Source: Lama glama (taxonomy: Eukaryota). Taken from it: a stretch of 64,000 bases of DNA. Numbering within the stretch: the first letter of the stretch is position 1; every line of letters begins with the position of its first letter. The stretch covers positions 17,918,001 to 17,982,000 of the forward strand of contig CM052847.1 in the NCBI GenBank assembly GCA_028534125.1, in the 5' to 3' direction. This document shows, piece by piece, positions 8,141 through 48,872 of the stretch. The notes under the pieces are model-generated. The model made no database searches, had not been told where the DNA came from, and saw only the letters and a list, made by a program, of their open reading frames with translations. Position numbers and translations under genes: made by a program.

Positions 8141-10414
8141 GTATATTGTCAATTTCTGGCTTATCAAACGGGAGTGATGGTCACCCTCTGACTGTCTCAC
8201 GAACTCCACGTGTGGTCTTCTGCTGTGTTTGTGGTAGTTGTAGCTTTGCTTTAGCAGCCCTAAATCCTACACTCCTCTTCTCGTAGTAAGTCTTTCCACT
8301 CATCTCCATTTCCAGTCTTTTGTCGTTAAAACACGTAGACTCTAAACAGAGGATTCCAGACAAACCTAAGTACGGTCGTTCCATTTTGACGAGTTTTGTT
8401 TTGCTTTTCAGCGAATTTCTTTGGGAGCTCACCTAACTCGATCAGTTGTTTATTCTGTCCCAAAGGCTAGTGCCGGGGAGGAAAGAAGCAAAGTCTTATC
8501 AAAGACATGGCTTTCTGTTCACAGTAACACTGCTAAACCCAGTGATAACGCCTTCTACTGAAATCACAGCTAACTAGGCACCAGCTCGGGGTTGCGGGTT
8601 AAAAAATGTCATATATTTACCTCTCTCAATAATATAATAGTTGCAAGAAAAATTAAACGAAGAAAGGATTAACGTTCTTCTTCAACCGCAGTGTTTCTAA
8701 AGGCGTGAGGCTCACGCTTAGTTGTAAGTTATTCTTTTGTTCACATTTCGTGCCTCTTACTCCAAGCCTATTCATTTTTCTTCTAATTAAGAGAATACAT
8801 AAAGCAAAATGGAAGCTTGTGTTATTATTTAGTATGAAAACATGGAACCTAATCATAGCTAATGAGTATAATAAACGCCGGCTGTACCTCCTCTTGTTTG
8901 TGTGTGTTTTACATACAGAAGGTAGCACAGGCTGGGGAACCAGGACGCCAGGCTACAGGTGGGCTTGCGAAATGCTGTTTGACAGCCGGTTAGAGCAATC
9001 TGTCAGAAATGATGACTTAATCACCATAACAGACTCCAACTCCCCTTGTAGCATTCCACCCAGAGTAATCTAATTTTCCTGCGGTATTTTATTTATTTTA
9101 CTTTTTGCCAGGGCTGCATGGTTACCCTGCTTGGCTTTTCCCCTCTAGTGTACCACATGATGCTAACAGAGAGGTAAACGGGTTAGTGACATTACAGCTA
9201 AAGGGGAGCCTGAGAAGCCAAAAGCAGATACGTAATTCTGGAGTCTGTAGGTTGGCCTCCATCATTGGATCATACACGAAAAAAGCTGAGAGCAGTATTA
9301 GCTGTCTGCTTCCCACGTGACCACAAAGGCTGTTCCTTCCAGGATATCCTCTTAGGTTTTGAATGAGACCCTTTCCTTTTTCCCTCAAGGAAACCCTTTT
9401 ACTTTGTAAAATAGTGATGATGATGATGATAATTTTATTGGGCAAATATTATCCAAACAGTGCTTTAAGCACATCACATGACTCAGTGGCTATAAGAAAG
9501 AAATAGCCATTTATTTCCACTCTAGCTTCCACCCCGCCCCACAGTTGTGATTTGCCATAGGGAGAGAAGGGATAAATTATGTTTCTTTGTTATTGTCATA
9601 TTCACATCCCCTCTTCTTCTTGGCTTGGTAACTTTTATAAAAATATACATTGGCAAATGTTAGTTGCAAGTTTTCTGTGTACCTGCTCTGTTAACTCAGT
9701 TAATGATGATGCCCCAAAGAGGAATTTGGAAAAGCATCGTGACTCAAAGCATTGATGAATCCCTTACACTCTTCCACCAGGGGATTCGTGTCTTCAGAAG
9801 ACAACTATGTGCTGAGTTTCGTCCAGAATTTCCAAAGCACTGTTCAGATAAACAGGCATTTCACAATCCAGTCAGCATGAAGCCAAAGACCAGGGCCTAT
9901 GGGTTTAAATGCTGGACTGGCCAATATCTGCTCCACACTCCAATTGATTTTATAGATTCCGGTTACTTCTTTGCACTCACAGTTTGTGAAGAAACCACAA
10001 AATGCCGGATCAACTCATGTCAGTTATTCAAAACTATTATTTTCCTCTCAGAATAACCAACAGCTCATTTTGCTTATTACCAGTTTATTTCTTATTGACA
10101 TACGTATAGAACATTTCGGATAATTTGGCCATGAAACAAACCTCACAGTCGAATTCCATTTTGCGTGTCTATTTTAAATAGCCTGGAGGGACTGTAGAAG
10201 GACCAGCATTGAATCTCCCTGGAGCAGCACACATAGTTCCTTTATAGTCAAGTGGCACCTAGATTGGAGCTCTGCTTTCCTAACATGGCTGTTACAGCTA
10301 TGTTTTTTCTTTGAATCATTGCAGCCTTTTAAGTTTCCTTTCCTGCCTTTTTCATGGAGAAAAGCCAGACAATCATTTTTGTTCTGAGGCTAATTTAAAA
10401 TATTTTAGTTCTTG

Positions 10415-11305
10415 CTTTCCAAACTGGATGCCTTTTATTTTTTTTTTTTTCTTGCCTAATTGCTGTGGCTAAGACTTCCAGTACTCTGTTGAATGAAAGG
10501 GGCAAGGTGAGCATCCTTGTCTTTTCCTGACCTTTGAGGAAACGCTTTCAGGTTTTCACTGTTTAGTATGCTGTTATGTATGGCTTGTCATACGTGGGCT
10601 GTATTATGTTGAGATGCATTCCCTGTGTACCCACTTTGTTGAGAGCCTTTATCTAAATGGATGTTGAACTTTGTCAGATTCTTTTTCTGCATCTATTGAG
10701 ATGACCATGTGATTTTTACCCTTTGTTTTGTTAATATGGTGAATCACGTNNNNNNNNNNNNNNNNNNNNNNNNNNNNNNNNNNNNNNNNNNNNNNNNNNN
10801 NNNNNNNNNNNNNNNNNNNNNNNNNNNNNNNNNNNNNNNNNNNNNNNNNNNNNNNNNNNNNNNNNNNNNNNNNNNNNNNNNNNNNNNNNNNNNNNNNNNN
10901 NNNNNNNNNNNNNNNNNNNNNNNNNNNNNNNNNNNNNNNNNNNNNNNNNNNNNNNNNNNNNNNNNNNNNNNNNNNNNNNNNNNNNNNNNNNNNNNNNNNN
11001 NNNNNNNNNNNNNNNNNNNNNNNNNNNNNNNNNNNNNNNNNNNNNNNNNNNNNNNNNNNNNNNNNNNNNNNNNNNNNNNNGGGAAGTTTTTGATTGCTAA
11101 TTCAATCTCCTTACTAATAATCAGTCTGTTCAGGATCTTCTGTTTCATCATGATTCAATCTTGGTGGGTTTAGTGTTTCTGGGAATTTATCCATTTCTTC
11201 TAGGTTGTCCAGTTTGTCGTTGTGTGCGATTGTTCATAGTAATTGCTTATCCTTTGCACTTCTGTGGTATCAGTTGTAACATCTCTTTCATTTCTGAGAT
11301 AGTCT
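10415..11305 (-). mobile_element. L1 ORF2 fragment, antisense, interrupted by a gap
   Basis: ttgcctaattgctgtggctaagacttccagtactctgttgaat...gcatccttgtctt and ttttctgcatctattgagatgaccat are L1 ORF2 antisense hallmarks; the minus-strand LNRLIISKEIELAIKN peptide is ORF2-like. Confidence 0.85.
10750..11080. other. Assembly gap (331 N) inside L1
   Basis: Run of N flanked by collinear L1 sequence. Confidence 0.99.
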
Positions 11306-16642: not shown

Positions 16643-16691
16643 ATGCATCATCCCATTCAGATGAAACCTGCAGATAGTGAAAAATCAAACG
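16643..16691 (+). CDS. CELF2: CELF2 coding exon (about exon 4), 49 nt, MHHPIQMKPADSEKSN(A), end of RRM1 and linker
   Basis: Acceptor ttttgtgtttttag|ATGCAT, donor AACG|gtaggt; phase 0 to 1; too short for the ORF track. Confidence 0.96.
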
Positions 16692-17891
16692 GTAGGTGGT
16701 AACCAACGATCTCCTTTAATATATGGGTTTTTTTTAAGTGAAGAAGTCAGGTGGGGTGGGAGGAGCTGGCCCCAGGTGCTGCTTCTCTAGAGGAGGCAGA
16801 GGGAAGTGCTCCAGGCAGCTTCCGGCATGACTGGTACCTCCGGAGTACCACAGACTTCACTCCTGCCTCCTGCATCTCTGCTGTAAAGATCTGTGAAGAT
16901 GCCACAGGAGATGGTTTTATGTGGGAGTTGATCTGTGTGGTGGCCCTGGGCCACTCCTCCCACAGAGCAGCCCGGGCACCCGGTGGTGAAGGGTGACCTT
17001 ATACCGGGCAGAGAGGGTGAGCGAAGGGCATCGCCCACTGAGCATTAGGCTGTCTGTTCTCCGCTCTCCTTTGGCTTTAGACTGTCTCCTCGCACTTTTC
17101 TCGAAGTCGTGCCAATGCATTTGCATCCAGATTCATTCAGAATTCAGCCTCTGATTAAATAAACATACGCTCAGTGCAAAAAAGTGTGCATTCGACAAGG
17201 TTGGTGAAATAATGGAGAACTGCCTCTCCAAGACACCAGAGGGTTGACAGTCACATTTCTCTCTTCTGAAGTTTTTGCTTCCACTTATACAAACCTTCTG
17301 TCCCTGTTTTGTTCTTCAGATCTACTGAAATGTATGCTAAAGGAACCTTCCGAAACCTCAGCGCTCCCCTGTCCCACAGGACTGACGCCGTCAGCCTGGT
17401 TTCTTTCCCACAGGCCGCTGTGCACCTCATTAATTAGTAGTCAGGGCAGAAGCCACGCATTTAGGGATCTGCGTGTCTGCAGATGTAAACTATGACAGGG
17501 CTCGACCTCCCTCCACAAGACACTTTTTGCTCGTTGTAGTGCGGCCCATTTCCTGGCTCCACAGACTAGAAGGTTTTGAGGGAAATTCCATGTCGTACGG
17601 TGGTACTGCCAGTGCCTGCGTGGTCCTGTGGTGGGGGGTCGACGCTGGTGCTTTACCCGCCACCTCCTTGCCGGCCCCACGCTTCTCTGAGCATCTCATT
17701 CCCATTTTCCCGCAGTACGTTATACAGACGTGGCAGTTAGGGTCGCTGGGGCTCAGGTCCACCACTGCTTGTTGTGGGATCTTGGTCCAGTCCCTTCTTT
17801 CCTTTATTGACAGTTACTCGTCGATTACTTACTGTGTGCCAGGCGTGTTGCTGGAGCTGAGGTCACAGCAGTGATTTGAAAAAAAGAAGGA

Positions 17892-23928: not shown

Positions 23929-24063
23929 CCGTGGAAGACAGAAAACTGTTCATAGGAATGGTTTCGAAGAAATGTAACGAGAATGACATCCGGGTGATGT
24001 TCTCTCCGTTCGGCCAGATCGAAGAGTGCCGGATCCTCCGGGGACCCGACGGGCTCAGTCGAG
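23929..24063 (+). CDS. CELF2: CELF2 coding exon (about exon 5), 135 nt, (A)[44 protein letters not shown](G), first half of RRM2
   Basis: ctctctgtctcctag|CCGTG ... CGAG|gtgagt; RNP2 motif LFIGMV; phase 1 to 1; within ORF 23895..24167. Confidence 0.98.
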
Positions 24064-27000: not shown

Positions 27001-30000
27001 TTTTTTTCTTTTGCTCAGTTCAGCTGTAAGAGTGAGAGCGGAGACTTAATAGCCTTGGCTCCCCAGCAGGTGTCTAATGTCCTTCCTTCTCTGCACCGTC
27101 AGTAGTTTGAATCCAGATGTTAGACTGAGGTTCCTCCGGGCTTGTTGACCAGTGCCCCCGCCCCACGTCGGAATAGTGGGCTGCCAGGACCCACGTTTTT
27201 GTATCCCTGAAGCCCTGCTATACTTTCCATTAGAATCACTGTCTTTTAAAATAAAAAAATCACGATCTACACTTTGGCAAGAAAGATAATTTTAGAAGTC
27301 CCAGAGTTACTCACCAGCACCCAGAACTGAACCATGTTTTAAGACAGACTGCCCTCCCCCCACCCCCCGCCCCAGGAAACTGTCATGCCTCTGTAAGGAC
27401 AGTGTCTGCCAAGCCTGTCACAACCACCCGACGGGTACCAGGACTCTGCTTCACTTTCCGCTGTACACCCACATCTAAACATGCGTTTTTCCCCGTTGCA
27501 GGCAGCAACCCATTCTGCCATTTTTTTTTCCCCTTAATTTGGAAAATCTGGTTTGAGATACTTCAGCCCCTCCTGATGCTCAGAACCGTCTGCACAACAG
27601 GTCCACCTGCCAGGCCCACACGTGGCAAGTGAAATGAGATGTTTGCTCTCAGAATCAAAGCTTGAGGCTTCTAAGCCAATGTGTTTATTGGCCAGTGTCA
27701 CCTTATAGCATGTTGATTTCCTCAAATACACATACTCTCGCTTACCCACAGTCCCATAGTTGGAATGGACTATTTGGGTCCAATGTGCCAGGTTTGCAAT
27801 GCCATGGCAATTGAATATCTGTAACTCAGAGACAGTGAAGGGGTTGATTTCATCTTTCTTTCCCATAAACCGTAGTCAAATCTTCACTGCCATTTAAGGT
27901 AACTTTCTGCTTGTTTAAGAATATTCCAGCTGCATTTATGGTGTTCCAACAGCCTCCTGCCAAAACCCTTGTCAAATGAATTGGCAATACTCTCAGGGAC
28001 ATTGCTGAGCACAGAGTGGATTTAGCTATTAAATCCTCATTTGTTTTTGTTTTATCTGATCGGGATATTGGGATAGGACTTTTGACACTTAAAACATGTA
28101 CACAGAGAGGACTTCAGTTCTGATCACGACATTTTAGTCTTGCCCATGTGGTACCCAAACATTCAGATATGTGGAAACCTTTATCAGATGCCCCCTGGGG
28201 TATTAACTGCATCTTGTTGTCTTGCTCTGGGTACAATCTTCCAGTCTCATCTCAGGAATGAGATTTGGCCAACTATAAAGTCCTCGTCTGCACTCAACCT
28301 CGGGTGCCAAAAGCAAATGATCGCTCCCTGCCAATTTTGAATAAACTAACCCCACATTGGGGATTGTCCATTAGGGTATTAATTTTGATGCTCCAGTACC
28401 ATCCTGATAGCATATGTTTAAATCCTGCCATTGCTCAAAAAATACAGTGAGGAAAATCAGCCGCATTAAATCTTGCTTTGGCTGAAAAGGAATTTGTAGA
28501 TAAGTTTTCCATAGGCTGAAACCTCCTCACGCCACACAAATTCTTTTAAATTAGGTTTCCCTCGGTTGAAATAAAGCAGCTGCTGCTCCTCTTTCAAAGG
28601 AGGGCAGGAAATCAAGAGGCCCTGGCATTGTATGTGCTTTTGAAAGTGCCGGTACTTCTTTGTTTGCTTTATTCCTTTTTTTTTCCTTGGTGCAGAGCAA
28701 GAATTCACCTAGATCTCTCAAAATTCTCTTGCAGCCTAGAGAAAAGCTAGAACACCTGAGTTAAGATAGCCTTTCAGTCAAGATGACAGGAGGAATAGAT
28801 GTGTTCCAGAATCTGCTGTGTGACAGGCCTATCTGCTCTCCTTAGATCCCGTCTGTAGGAGGAAATTACTTGGAGAAACCTTTCCCAGTCAATCACGTGT
28901 CCATTTTAGCAGCAAGAAGGTAACCTCGTCGAAATAAGAGGAATTCAACTCCTTTCATTTCTATTAGCAATCTCTGACATTCTGAAAGTGGAGATGATAA
29001 ATAATGGACAGCTAAATTACAGGTTGGACACATCTACAGGTGGAATTTTTGCCTTTTAGTTTTTCCATTAGGCATTTGGAGGCTTTAAGATGGTACTGTG
29101 TGGGATCTCTTACCAGCCTCCCCCACCCCCCACCCCCCCCCCAAAAAAGAAAAAAGTAGCTTCACTATTTTGGTACCAGTTTTGATTTGTTTTTTTTACT
29201 CCTGCAGTCTAAGTTCTTCTGCATTTTGATCAGTAGCCAGAGAACTGACTGCTGGCACCCCATGTGGAACAGTCTAGAACAGTCAAGGGCTGACCCTGCA
29301 AGATCAGAGCAGTTTTCCAGACCCAGTAGACTCCACTGTCCCCAGAAGCTCGTTTTCAGAAAAAGAAGGGGGTAATTGACCAAAGCAATTTCTCACCGGG
29401 GGAAAAGCCGCGGGTGAGCTTGTGGAAGGAGCCAGCAGCCCACGGTGATGGGAGGAGCCCGTGTGACCTGTGTTAGCAGAAAGTCACAGATAGGCAGCCT
29501 CACCCCAAAGCCCGTGTTTTCAGTGGTTTTGAAAAGAAAGTGAAAATCTAGCCGTAGGACTACCTTGACCTTCTGTTTTAAAGACATGACACAGGTTAGC
29601 AAGCTAGCCATCCGTGAAACACTGGGTTCTGAAGTTAGCTTCCCCTGGAGTGACGGAGAGAGGGAGTCTTGTGTAGCCCGTGTTCCCACTTTCTGAGTGA
29701 CATAGTCATTTTCTCTCTCAAGTAACTGAACACCACACACAGCATGGAACCTGACCAAGCCCCCAGGAGACAAGGTGTCCCTAACCGCACCCTGATAGAA
29801 TAAAAAGGTTAAAGAAGTCATCGGGTTTGTCAGGTCTTTTTTTTTTTTTTTTTTTGGATGGGATGAGGATTGTATAATTAGAAGCATCAGTCAAGCTTTT
29901 AATTGCAGTTTTCATAGAGGAAAGGGCAACAGTTCCAGTTTCTCGAGAGAGAGTTTCATCATCCTGTTGCTCAGACTTTTCTTTTGAGCCCTTGTTCATT

Positions 30001-32269: not shown

Positions 32270-32513
32270 NNNNNNNNNNNNNNNNNNNNNNNNNNNNNNN
32301 NNNNNNNNNNNNNNNNNNNNNNNNNNNNNNNNNNNNNNNNNNNNNNNNNNNNNNNNNNNNNNNNNNNNNNNNNNNNNNNNNNNNNNNNNNNNNNNNNNNN
32401 NNNNNNNNNNNNNNNNNNNNNNNNNNNNNNNNNNNNNNNNNNNNNNNNNNNNNNNNNNNNNNNNNNNNNNNNNNNNNNNNNNNNNNNNNNNNNNNNNNNN
32501 NNNNNNNNNNNNN
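32270..32513. other. Assembly gap (244 N), probably hiding the ~80-nt CELF2 exon (G)[26 protein letters not shown]
   Basis: Run of N; flanking exons are phase-incompatible (1 vs 0); the RNP1-containing segment was not found elsewhere between 24064 and 36590. Confidence 0.8.
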
Positions 32514-32599: not shown

Positions 32600-32676
32600 T
32601 CCCTTCTCTCTCTCTCTCTCTCTTTCCCTCCTTCCCTCCCTCCCTCTCTTCTTCTCTCTCTTTCTCACTCTCTTTC
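32600..32676. repeat. (CT)n/(CCCT)n microsatellite
   Basis: cttctctctctctctctctctttccctcccttccctccc... Confidence 0.9.
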
Positions 32677-35600
32677 TGATTTTTCCCCTAATGACTGGAG
32701 ATGCACATAGTGAAACCTTCCACTTAGTCTACATTCTTTTTGGAGCCTTTTATTGCAGGGGCCCAGGTCCTGCCATGTAAAGTTCATGATGCCATGTAAG
32801 CCAAGTATCATTGTGTACCTCAAAGATCGAGGGCGTCCCCCAGCATGGGGGTGGCATGGATTAAACCGTAACCACCCCCACTCCAAATTGCAGCTGGCCC
32901 TGCGCTACATCACAGGGTTCGTTCTTTTCTTTTTAGTTTTTGTTGTTTTTTTTTTTTAACGTGGGGTCAAGTTATCTCTAATCTAGACAAACAGAATTGC
33001 GTTTTTGCATCCAGAATGTTGGAGAAAGTTTATACTTCTCCCACGTCCATTAACCAGTGCAAGTATTCACATATGAGAGTCCCTCAAAAAATTAATTTGT
33101 CACCTTATTAAAAAAATACGAACAATAACCAAGAAACACAAAGGCTCAAGTTTGGTCTCCTAATGAGAGACAGTGGCTTTTGGGGAAGATGAATATTTAA
33201 TGGGCGTGGGTCCCCGGAGGTAGACAATGGCTCTGTAATTCAAGTCTGTGATTTGGGTCATGGCCTTTCAGAATTTTGCACAAAAGCATTCCAAGAGTGA
33301 GATGCTGTTACTTACTCTGTATTGTCTGACAGAACCCTTCGGGAGTGCATGTTCTGGTGTATATGTAAACTGTATCTCTGTGTGCGGGTGATCTCTTCTG
33401 GAGGTAGCTTTGTGGTGTTCTCTGAAGTGATGTTTTTCATCTTTCAGAAAAAGAAAAAAATAATTTTTTTCGGTTTTATTTTAATGTGCCGAAAGTTCTT
33501 TCTTGTTTGAGCTTCTTTTTTTGCCTCCATTTGGGGGGAGGGGATATTTATTAATTTTTTTTTTTTTTGTCCGTTTGTTTTTGTTTGTTTTTTTGCAATG
33601 CTGCATCTCCCGAAGCATGCCGGGAGCTCAGTGATCATCACGGGTCATGTTTTGTGGGCAACCTTTTTAGAGTGAGCCAGAGGGCGGGTGGAAGGGGGGA
33701 AAGGCGTGTGCATGGCATTGTCATTAAGTGTTGACCGTCCTTTTCTGAGTTTTGATACATCAGCATTGCAAAGCCTCTTGTCTTTTTCGAACTTCCTTTT
33801 GACTTTAATATTCCTAACATATCTTATATAATCACTGTGTTTTCCTTTCAGTGCAATGCATTTTTAAGACACTCACTCCCTCCCCCTACGTGAAGGCCAG
33901 CTCAGGTGAAAATCGGCCACGATAAGAGAGAATTAGCAGAGAATTTGAAATGTCTAGGAATCCAGTTTTGAACAACATGCACATACACCCGTGATCATGG
34001 TTTCGCATTCCCCCACCCCCCGCCTTTTTGCATCTTGGGCTGCTCCGTTATCGTGGACCAGTCTGGTTTCCAGCTACATGTCAGTTTGGAGATGGAAAGT
34101 GAAAGTACTGATAAGAAAAAGAAAGCTGTGACCTGTATTTATTATCTTCCATATATATGTGTTTCATTCTTAATTATTTTTATTTCCTGTCCTTGAGTGA
34201 TTTGTACCTAAATTGGTCTCACCTTAGATGATTTTTTAGCCAGAACCCTTTCAGCTCTGTTGGAAGTTCTGCCACCGCACCCAGTTCCTCCACCCCGGGC
34301 GCCCGCCTGAGCGGAGGTCTGTGTCCTCCTGTGTTTTCCCAGAAGGAGGCTACAAGGATGCACAGCAGAACTGGGTGTGAGCCCGAACCAGGGAAGTAAT
34401 AGGCTCTCAGAAGGAAAGGAACTTACGATAGAGAAGGGGACATGTTTATCCTTAAAGAAACCCTCGATCCTTTGTGAATATCACTATTATAAGAAATCAA
34501 ATTCAATGCGCTTGTTTTTAAATCTGGACATCCATGCTTAATCAGCAGGGCCCTCAGACACTACAATTTCTTTTTTTTTTATTTTAAATTTCTTGTTTAA
34601 TTCAAAAATACTGACAGGTAAATGAAAGATTACATATGACACAGCCTCATAGTTGTACAATTGAAGTTTGTTTTTTTGAATTAACTACGTTATTTTCAGG
34701 ACCCAGGCTCACACCTTCAACCAAGATACATTATCTACGAGATTTGAATTCAGAATGATGTGAATATCAAAGTTTGAAAGAATACTTTTTAAAAAAAAAT
34801 CATTAATTTTTATATGGTACCTAGATTTTTCCACTTTCCTCCAATCTCTCCCCATCCTGTTTTTCCCTTTCATGGTTAATCCAAGTCATTTTTGAGCTAT
34901 AATTATTGGCCTAATTTTCTGCTTTTATAGCATTTTGGGGGCACTGAAGGAAGAAAAAAGCCAACAGTAAGTGTACTATTAGGATGAGATGCTATAATTT
35001 GTTACAGAACAAATTTGATACAGTAACAGCCCTTTTCCGTGCAAAACCCTTGCTTTCTGTAATTTCCACCTTCAGAGTGTTTTGCTCTCGTTAAAGTGAT
35101 GAAGTGCTGAAATACAGAGCAGATGAAGAAAAATAAAGTATAGATTTTTTTCTTAATGGTGGAAATACTCCTTTAAGAAATTTACTGACACTTAACACTC
35201 AGTGCTGTGATGTGACCCCCAGAGCTGAAGACCAGGTCCGTTGGAAGTTCACAACTGAAACAGCCACTCACTTTTCTCACATTTTGGGGGATAATATCAG
35301 ACCTGATAGCCTCACGTATTCATAGCTACATCCCCAGTAACTCCCCCAGGTGATAAGAAAAAAAAATGCAACTTTGTTTTTGTAGGAGAAAGAAAAATGA
35401 CCCAGAAGGAAAGGGGGAAAGCTCATTTCAATAGGAGTAGAAGATTTCTGAGAAGAGGGGAGTTTCAGTAAAAGTCATGCTGAGTTTCAATAAAAGAGTT
35501 TTTTTAATCACTTGAGGAGAATTACTTCTTTTTATCTCAGCAGCTTTAATTGTGATGAAATGTACAGGCAGGTATGCAGAGAGAGAGGAGAGTTGGTTTC

Positions 35601-36590
35601 TGCAGAGTACTTACCGAGTGGTGAACACGGAAAAGGTGCTTTTGAAAGGAAGTCGTCCTGCCTAAGGTGTCAGGCCCTTAGTTTCCCTCATGATTTTTCT
35701 CTGTCTCAGACATGAAATCGTTCTATTTTAGAACCTTGGCCGTTTCTCACTCACTCACTCCCCCTCTTCCTTGCTTTTTAAAGGAAGGGACCATGGAAAG
35801 AACCTTCTAGGACAATGAGCTTAATTAGGAAAAGAAACCAAGCAGTGATCTCTGCTATTTAAGATCTATCTCCTTTGATGAAAATGTGCTTCTGATACAG
35901 GAGCCCCTGGGAACCCGCGTACAGTAGATGTCATACAGGTGGAGAAACCCTTCTGAAAACGTGGGGACAGGACACTGGCCCGTGCCTGTGTTCCCTGAAT
36001 CTCTCCTTCCTTCATCCACGTTCGTAAAACAAAACCCACTTCTCCCAATCATATTCCTGGGTCAGTGGTTTCCCATGGTTCCAAAGTTCAAAGTGCATAA
36101 CTAAACATTGGAAGGAATGAAAACTAAATGAGCAAGAGGCATCTTCATTCCCCTTACCACTGCTCCCCCTTTGTTCCCTGCTCACACATGGAAACAGGCA
36201 GACACACAAAGACAAGTGCATCTTTGAGACAAGCGAACCGTGGAGCTTAATAAAGAAAAGTAAGGTCTCCTGTCTCTGAGGAGGTCCTGGGATGGTCGAA
36301 GGAAGACCCGTGAAGAGAGAAGGCAAGGCAGTGTCATAATCAGAGCACGGAAGCACATGGCTTCATCGACCACCAGAGCCCCCGAGACACCGGTGACAGT
36401 GTCTGGAACTGTCTGTTGATGGTACCATTCCGAGAAGAAGAAAGACCATCAGACCGCTTAGAAACCATGCCAGCCCCGTCCCTGGGCTCCCGGGTAGTTC
36501 AGGAAGCTAGACCCCGTGCTGACTGCGCGTCATGAGCGGAGTCGACCCGGCTGTAACCCCCTGTTCACTTTCCGCTGTGTCTGACCACAG

Positions 36591-36749
36591 GGCTGCTCTT
36601 CACCCATCGTGGTGAAGTTCGCTGATACCCAGAAGGACAAGGAGCAAAGGCGCCTCCAGCAGCAGCTGGCCCAGCAGATGCAACAGCTCAACACTGCCAC
36701 CTGGGGGAACCTGACGGGTCTGGGCGGACTCACCCCGCAGTACCTGGCG
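36591..36749 (+). CDS. CELF2: CELF2 coding exon (about exon 7), 159 nt, [53 protein letters not shown]
   Basis: ctgaccacag|GGCTGC ... CTGGCG|gtaagt; phase 0 to 0; end of RRM2 and start of the divergent domain. Confidence 0.98.
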
Positions 36750-40144: not shown

Positions 40145-40208
40145 CTCCTGCAGCAGGCCACCTCCTCCAGCAACCTGGGTGCGTTCAGCGGCATTCAGCA
40201 GATGGCTG
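40145..40208 (+). CDS. CELF2: CELF2 coding exon (about exon 8), 64 nt, LLQQATSSSNLGAFSGIQQMA(G)
   Basis: cttgtccttcccag|CTCCTG ... GCTG|gtaagt; phase 0 to 1. Confidence 0.97.
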
Positions 40209-48737: not shown

Positions 48738-48872
48738 GCATGAATGCTCTGCAGCTACAGAATCTGGCAACGCTGGCAGCGGCTGCAGCCGCAGCCCAGA
48801 CCTCAGCCACCACCACCAATGCAAATCCCCTGTCCACCACGAGCAGCGCCCTGGGAGCCCTCACCAGTCCCG
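48738..48872 (+). CDS. CELF2: CELF2 coding exon (about exon 9), 135 nt, (G)MNALQLQNLATLAAAAAAAQTSATTTNANPLSTTSSALGALTSP
   Basis: cttccccctacag|GCATG ... CCCG|gtaagg; phase 1 to 1; within ORF 48719..48946. Confidence 0.98.

Follow-up and report, generated by a model that had tools for sequence, protein, structure and literature searches.

As set out in the available part of PMC4962813, splicing in brain, heart and T cells is shaped by how much CELF2 is present, and the known self-limiting splice event of the gene is the skipping of exon 6: in the sections of Dembowski 2009 consulted (PMC2715136), CELF2 (CUGBP2) silences its own exon 6, with the control mapped to the exon 6 branch region, and intron 6 receives no mention in them. 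A second class of relevant systems comprises decoy exons. According to the accessible text of Parra 2018 (PMC6097662), retained introns of >1 kb contain non-coding cassettes more often, short cassettes of this kind can promote retention there yet splice only rarely, and decoy introns typically hold several weak cassettes. The decoys of SF3B1 intron 4, OGT and ARGLU1 lie in >1 kb retained introns of RNA-processing genes; the SF3B1 cassettes measure 29-56 nt, and the outcomes are nonsense-mediated decay (NMD) or retention. CELF2 does not appear in the main text of that study. Two further sets, the cryptic poison exons that lie within conserved intronic elements (Margasyuk 2024, PMC11632617) and the poison exons that SR genes carry (Pineda and Bradley 2018), are described in the portions of the papers at hand as unannotated premature-stop cassettes in introns of protein-coding genes.

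The mouse orthologue of the intron that hosts the exon proposed here has been called as retained. From the accessible sections of Llorian 2016 (PMC5062968), an annotated retained intron of Cugbp2 (mm9 chr2:6525229-6528928) has retention scores of 90-100% in smooth muscle cells of aorta and bladder when these are differentiated and of 46-63% when they proliferate; this is a junction-array call, the validated Cugbp2 event there being the 'bleeding exon' of intron 4. The size of the retained mouse intron is 3699, and its distance to exon 5 is 7726 after subtracting 135 and 80. As these sizes equal those of the introns that flank the 80-nt exon 6 of mouse (7726 and 3699 nt; Weyn-Vanhentenryck 2018), the retained intron is identified as intron 6.

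Against this background, a 54-nt candidate cryptic exon, recognized from the letters only (33852-33905, plus strand), was analysed in a window of 64,000 nucleotides of Lama glama DNA. It resembles the decoys of Parra 2018 in length (54 nt) and in its setting within an RNA-processing gene and a >1 kb intron, and it shares an intronic location and a premature stop with the exons of Margasyuk and of Pineda and Bradley. The Parra decoys are backed by minigene tests, by deep conservation, by U2AF binding and by junction reads obtained with NMD blocked, and the other two sets are defined by conservation plus RNA-seq support, whereas the present candidate is known from sequence alone. Exon 6 skipping likewise concerns the same gene and region, truncates RRM2 and is predicted in the consulted text to cause NMD; however, it is a coding exon that is skipped there, while here a non-coding exon would be included, in the next intron. 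The event in Llorian 2016 involves an intron orthologous by exact size and non-productive processing of Celf2, yet it is, as far as the available text goes, whole-intron retention called from an array, with no internal exon. At the array level, the mouse orthologue of the host intron is a retained intron of >1 kb.

CELF2 was identified as the gene carried by the window through protein matches and exon mapping, in which one CELF2 protein was placed by tblastn and splice context. Exon 4 was mapped from this protein to 16643-16691 and exon 9 to 48738-48872. Exon 5 (23929-24063, plus strand; 135 nt, ending in phase 1) codes for the start of RRM2, with a Pfam RRM_1 match and a 98-100% match to named CELF2 proteins, in addition to support from tblastn and splice context. 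Exon 7 (36591-36749, plus strand; 159 nt, starting in phase 0) was placed by tblastn and equals in length its human counterpart at chr10:11270666-11270824, and exon 8 lies at 40145-40208 on the plus strand. The called bases from exon 5 to exon 7 contain no match to the exon 6 peptide, the best stretch agreeing at 7 of 26 residues. Placing exon 6 in the 244-base N gap at 32270-32513 gives flanking introns of 8.2-8.4 kb and 4.1-4.2 kb, a spacing near that of mouse; because of this spacing and the missing match, the 80-nt exon 6 most likely sits in the gap. An annotation made from this sequence would then miss coding exon 6; a second N gap is found at 10750-11080. Since exon 5 ends in phase 1 and exon 6 adds 80 nt, intron 6 would be in phase 0. 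The candidate is located between exons 5 and 7, that is, in intron 6 if exon 6 is in the gap. It lies 2685 nt upstream of exon 7, which by projection would correspond to about hg38 chr10:11,267,900-11,268,000.

All the letters cited by the sequence-only reading were found in place. A branch-point-like CCTAAC (33813-33818, plus strand) has its A at 33817, at -35 relative to the exon, and is contained in an AG-free zone (33774-33851, plus strand) with UGUGUU, a pyrimidine tract and a CAG acceptor; this zone extends for 76 nt between the preceding AG at 33772 and the acceptor AG at 33850-33851. The acceptor carries 14 pyrimidines of 20, as against 14-17 of 20 in five real acceptors of the gene (exons 4, 5, 7, 8 and 9). 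The moderate donor CAG/GTGAAA (33903-33911, plus strand) has a 6/9 match to U1 at -8.4 kcal/mol; the five real donors match at 6-8/9 and -8.7 to -12.7 kcal/mol, making the candidate donor the weakest of the six by duplex energy. Both flanking sites look usable from their letters, with the acceptor in the real range and the donor falling a little short of each of the five. Use of another donor, at 33890, would turn the exon into a frame-restoring replacement for exon 6; this donor was rejected (U1 match 4/9, -3.0).

When included after exon 6, the candidate reads CNAFLRHSLPPPT and then stops at the TGA of 33891-33893, as the phase-0 translation proposed earlier had it. A stop codon generally triggers NMD when it lies more than 50-55 nt upstream of a downstream junction. 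From the end of the candidate stop it is only 12 nt to the junction at the 3' end of the candidate itself, and 171 nt separate the stop from the junction of exons 7 and 8, the first one that is >55 nt away. The predicted NMD therefore rests on the exon 7-8 junction, the exon's own one being too close. With this refinement, the earlier expectation that inclusion leads to NMD stands in its arithmetic. Given exon 6 in the gap, inclusion of the candidate is predicted to make an NMD substrate. If exon 6 is also skipped, the candidate contains no stop in frame and translation would end in exon 7, just as it does in the skipped form already known.

The chance expectation of such a structure was estimated from 500 block-wise dinucleotide shuffles of the intron, in each of which an acceptor-plus-donor pair was sought. 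The initial pair thresholds failed the candidate itself (10/12 pyrimidines, where 11 were required) and were relaxed, then graded. With a tract and a branch point demanded, the intron holds two pairs, and 37.8% of shuffles have one; adding an AG-free zone of at least 40 nt leaves one pair in the intron, with 16.4% of shuffles having one, and gives three plus-strand and two minus-strand pairs over the whole window. At thresholds fitted to the candidate, one plus-strand and no minus-strand pair remained in the window and 2.4% of shuffles had one, a figure flattered by the fitting. Of all acceptors in the 4077 called bases of the intron, only that of the candidate combines a tract and a branch point with at least 40 nt free of AG. 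Thus the candidate exceeds chance only weakly. The other plus-strand pairs passing the tract, branch-point and AG-free test lie at 9112-9173 and 27752-27898, and a second splice-like pair of intron 6 was noted at 35541-35571 (31 nt, with a branch-like motif and CAG/GTATGC).

These rates bear directly on an alternative to which we would give short of even odds, nearly as likely as the reading preferred below: that a T-rich stretch of intron resembles splice sites by chance and is neither used nor selected. Such a pseudo-exon is favoured by the shuffle rates of 16-38% at unfitted thresholds, by a minus strand that yields about as many pairs, and by intron 6 being the most T-rich of introns 4-8, as well as by the absence of the candidate from every protein and table row examined (see below). 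The stop codon does not help to separate the two cases: among 152 loose splice-like pairs in the window, 92 shift the frame and 40 of the remaining 60 carry a phase-0 stop, so that 132 of the 152 would be 'poison' by frameshift or stop and an in-frame stop is uninformative. On the other side are the uniqueness of the candidate in the window at the fitted level, the retention of the host intron in mouse (as far as described in the source at hand) and the helix predicted to bracket the exon.

The proposal of a poison exon was consequently upheld in part: the frame, the predicted NMD and the best signals of the intron favour it, while the stop carries no weight as evidence and the donor is the weakest of those compared. 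On paper the candidate resembles a poison or decoy exon and is a plausible one; if real, it would fit a well-known class. The reading we prefer, with a probability of roughly 0.45, is a cryptic exon of rare use, which would reduce CELF2 output through NMD if it is included and through retention of intron 6 if it is only half recognized; the odds of this reading are raised because intron 6 is retained in mouse, because the decoys of Parra 2018 provide precedents, and because exon 6 of CELF2 is already subject to unproductive splicing. In such a scheme, U2AF and U2 would engage the candidate acceptor, and the moderate donor would allow splicing to be completed only now and then. The resulting mRNA, with exon 6, the candidate and exon 7 joined, would end RRM2 early and presumably be subject to NMD. 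In the more frequent case, the incompletely defined exon would act in decoy mode, competing with the real ends of the intron and so favouring retention of intron 6. More speculatively, the bracketing helix might loop the exon out, and the UGUGUU of the tract might let CELF proteins compete with U2AF65. If true, the regulated retention of intron 6 would have an explanation in cis, and the exon would be a site at which deep intronic variants might reduce CELF2 as well as a possible target for antisense reagents; such exons being a well-known class, what is gained would concern this one gene.

The occurrence of the candidate in proteins, DNA and published tables was then surveyed. The protein scan, with eight peptide words of the candidate, covered 120 of 3494 hits, 120 of 396 hits restricted to short forms and 25 cluster members, and none of these 265 proteins contains the candidate peptide. 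Truncated CELF2 that skips exon 6 (P0127, P0128 and P0241) is among the same 265. These three represent the skipped product from horse, primates and another assembly, ending in GLLFT..GEVR or similar, and the product matches the frameshift read from the window. In a warthog CELF2 model (P0095), exon 5 is joined in frame to exon 9 with exons 6-8 skipped, and joining of this type constitutes an NMD-free route round the region. Look-ups of two minus-strand reading frames yielded one match of 59/60 with the species of origin unstated; two repetitive proteins with ~40% identity over 20-odd residues to minus-strand frames were rejected as chance.

The protein scan also weighs on a very unlikely alternative, in which the candidate acceptor opens an alternative last exon and the transcript continues through the weak donor as far as a poly(A) site within the intron, leaving a stable short CELF2 that escapes NMD and is composed of RRM1, most of RRM2 and the C-terminus CNAFLRHSLPPPT. 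The pairing of a strong acceptor with the weakest donor would suit such an exon, and AATAAA occurs at 35132, 35489 and 36249, with T-rich sequence after the first two; moreover, a comparable proximal 3' end event is described for intron 4 of mouse Celf2 in the consulted part of PMC5062968. However, the C-terminus was found in 0 of the 265 proteins, the search of short forms included, and the occurrence of AATAAA three times over 2.7 kb of AT-rich intron is probably unremarkable.

For the cryptic exon as proposed, searches of nucleotide data and of the literature brought no record. An exact 27-mer had no match in metagenome contigs, a result that says nothing on conservation, as judged by the exon 7 control, for which 15 loci were obtained (best 85% identical, from 27 of 64 parts scanned), none of them aligning to the candidate. 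Among 24 sequencing runs, the share of 370 sampled words present came to 0.29-0.40 in 14 RNA or guessed-RNA runs, none of which carries the organism code of the best-matching runs, and to 0.92-0.95 in six runs; the words include exon 7, and nothing is inferred from either range. A table of cassette exons in mouse brain (PMC5989265, 12 of 15 files) lists two Celf2 exons, neither inside intron 6. Celf2 is absent from 12 of 13 files of a cycloheximide study (PMC11188260), which is not a direct test, and CELF2 was unmatched in one supplementary file each of PMC6547761 and PMC11632617. Among the uncatalogued exons of PMC10842930, none in intron 6 was present in two of the eight CELF2 rows, and the other rows could hold the candidate; two further tables of that study gave none in intron 6 among two of four and two of three CELF2 rows. 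The available parts of PMC13042764, bioRxiv 2023.03.25.534016 and PMC4962813 contain nothing on the candidate, and no publication on it was found in the open literature, including by sequence and by peptide. It may already be catalogued in GENCODE, VastDB or subscription papers.

Local structure and motifs were examined around the candidate. Duplex prediction joins a G-rich 5' arm (33676-33701, plus strand) to a C-rich 3' arm (34007-34031, plus strand) in a long-range helix of -38 kcal/mol that brackets the branch point, exon and donor. Flank pairing of this strength was reached in 0 of 250 random 54-nt placements and 0 of 106 GC-matched ones, and 8-37 of 5000 shuffles of the arms paired as well, the arms having been picked after the fact. 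In a scan of 16000-49000, the helix is only ninth among local duplexes, and its arms are low-complexity. An equally good partner for the 5' arm, which has a G-quadruplex-like pattern, is found near 32624 in a TC-rich stretch that follows closely on the gap. The predicted helix is hence regarded as a lead only. The 181 nt around the candidate do not surpass their shuffles in local folding (z +0.39), a helix of 11 pairs across the branch point was set aside at only -10 kcal/mol, and Rfam gave no match at E up to 1 in 33650-36600. TGCATG, which we take to be an RBFOX-type motif, is located at 33709-33714 (plus strand) and is one of two in the intron; with 18 in the window, there is no enrichment. 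The branch-site perimeter code of CELF2, in which, according to the part of the source available, GU and UGUGU 10-30 nt apart flank the branch site, does not occur at the candidate: UGUGU at 33836 comes after the branch point, and the interval 10-30 nt upstream of this UGUGU contains no GU.

These features could also belong to an element that acts through its structure or through bound proteins to adjust how far exon 6 is skipped or intron 6 retained, the splice-like letters being incidental. This is the least probable of the readings considered, since the helix is unexceptional in the region-wide duplex scan, the motifs are not enriched, and the control of exon 6 was mapped to its own branch region in the sections of PMC2715136 consulted; in its favour are the competing partner of the predicted helix just downstream of the gap, the two TGCATG and one UGUGUU of the intron, and the fact, taken from the same sections, that exon 6 is regulated. 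The cryptic exon and the helix can also be combined into a so far unreported second brake on CELF2, where a poison or decoy exon would be looped out by the long-range helix of G-rich and C-rich arms, for which a second partner close to exon 6 competes, and folding would switch among productive splicing, retention and NMD. We consider this combination unlikely; if true, such a helix-switched brake would account for the regulated retention in smooth muscle and offer an antisense target for raising CELF2. Separately, the strongest local duplex in 16000-49000 is formed by 16751-16784 with 16935-16968 (-47.5 kcal/mol), just downstream of exon 4 and in the same intron as the regulated 'bleeding exon' or proximal 3' end described for mouse Celf2 in the text at hand.
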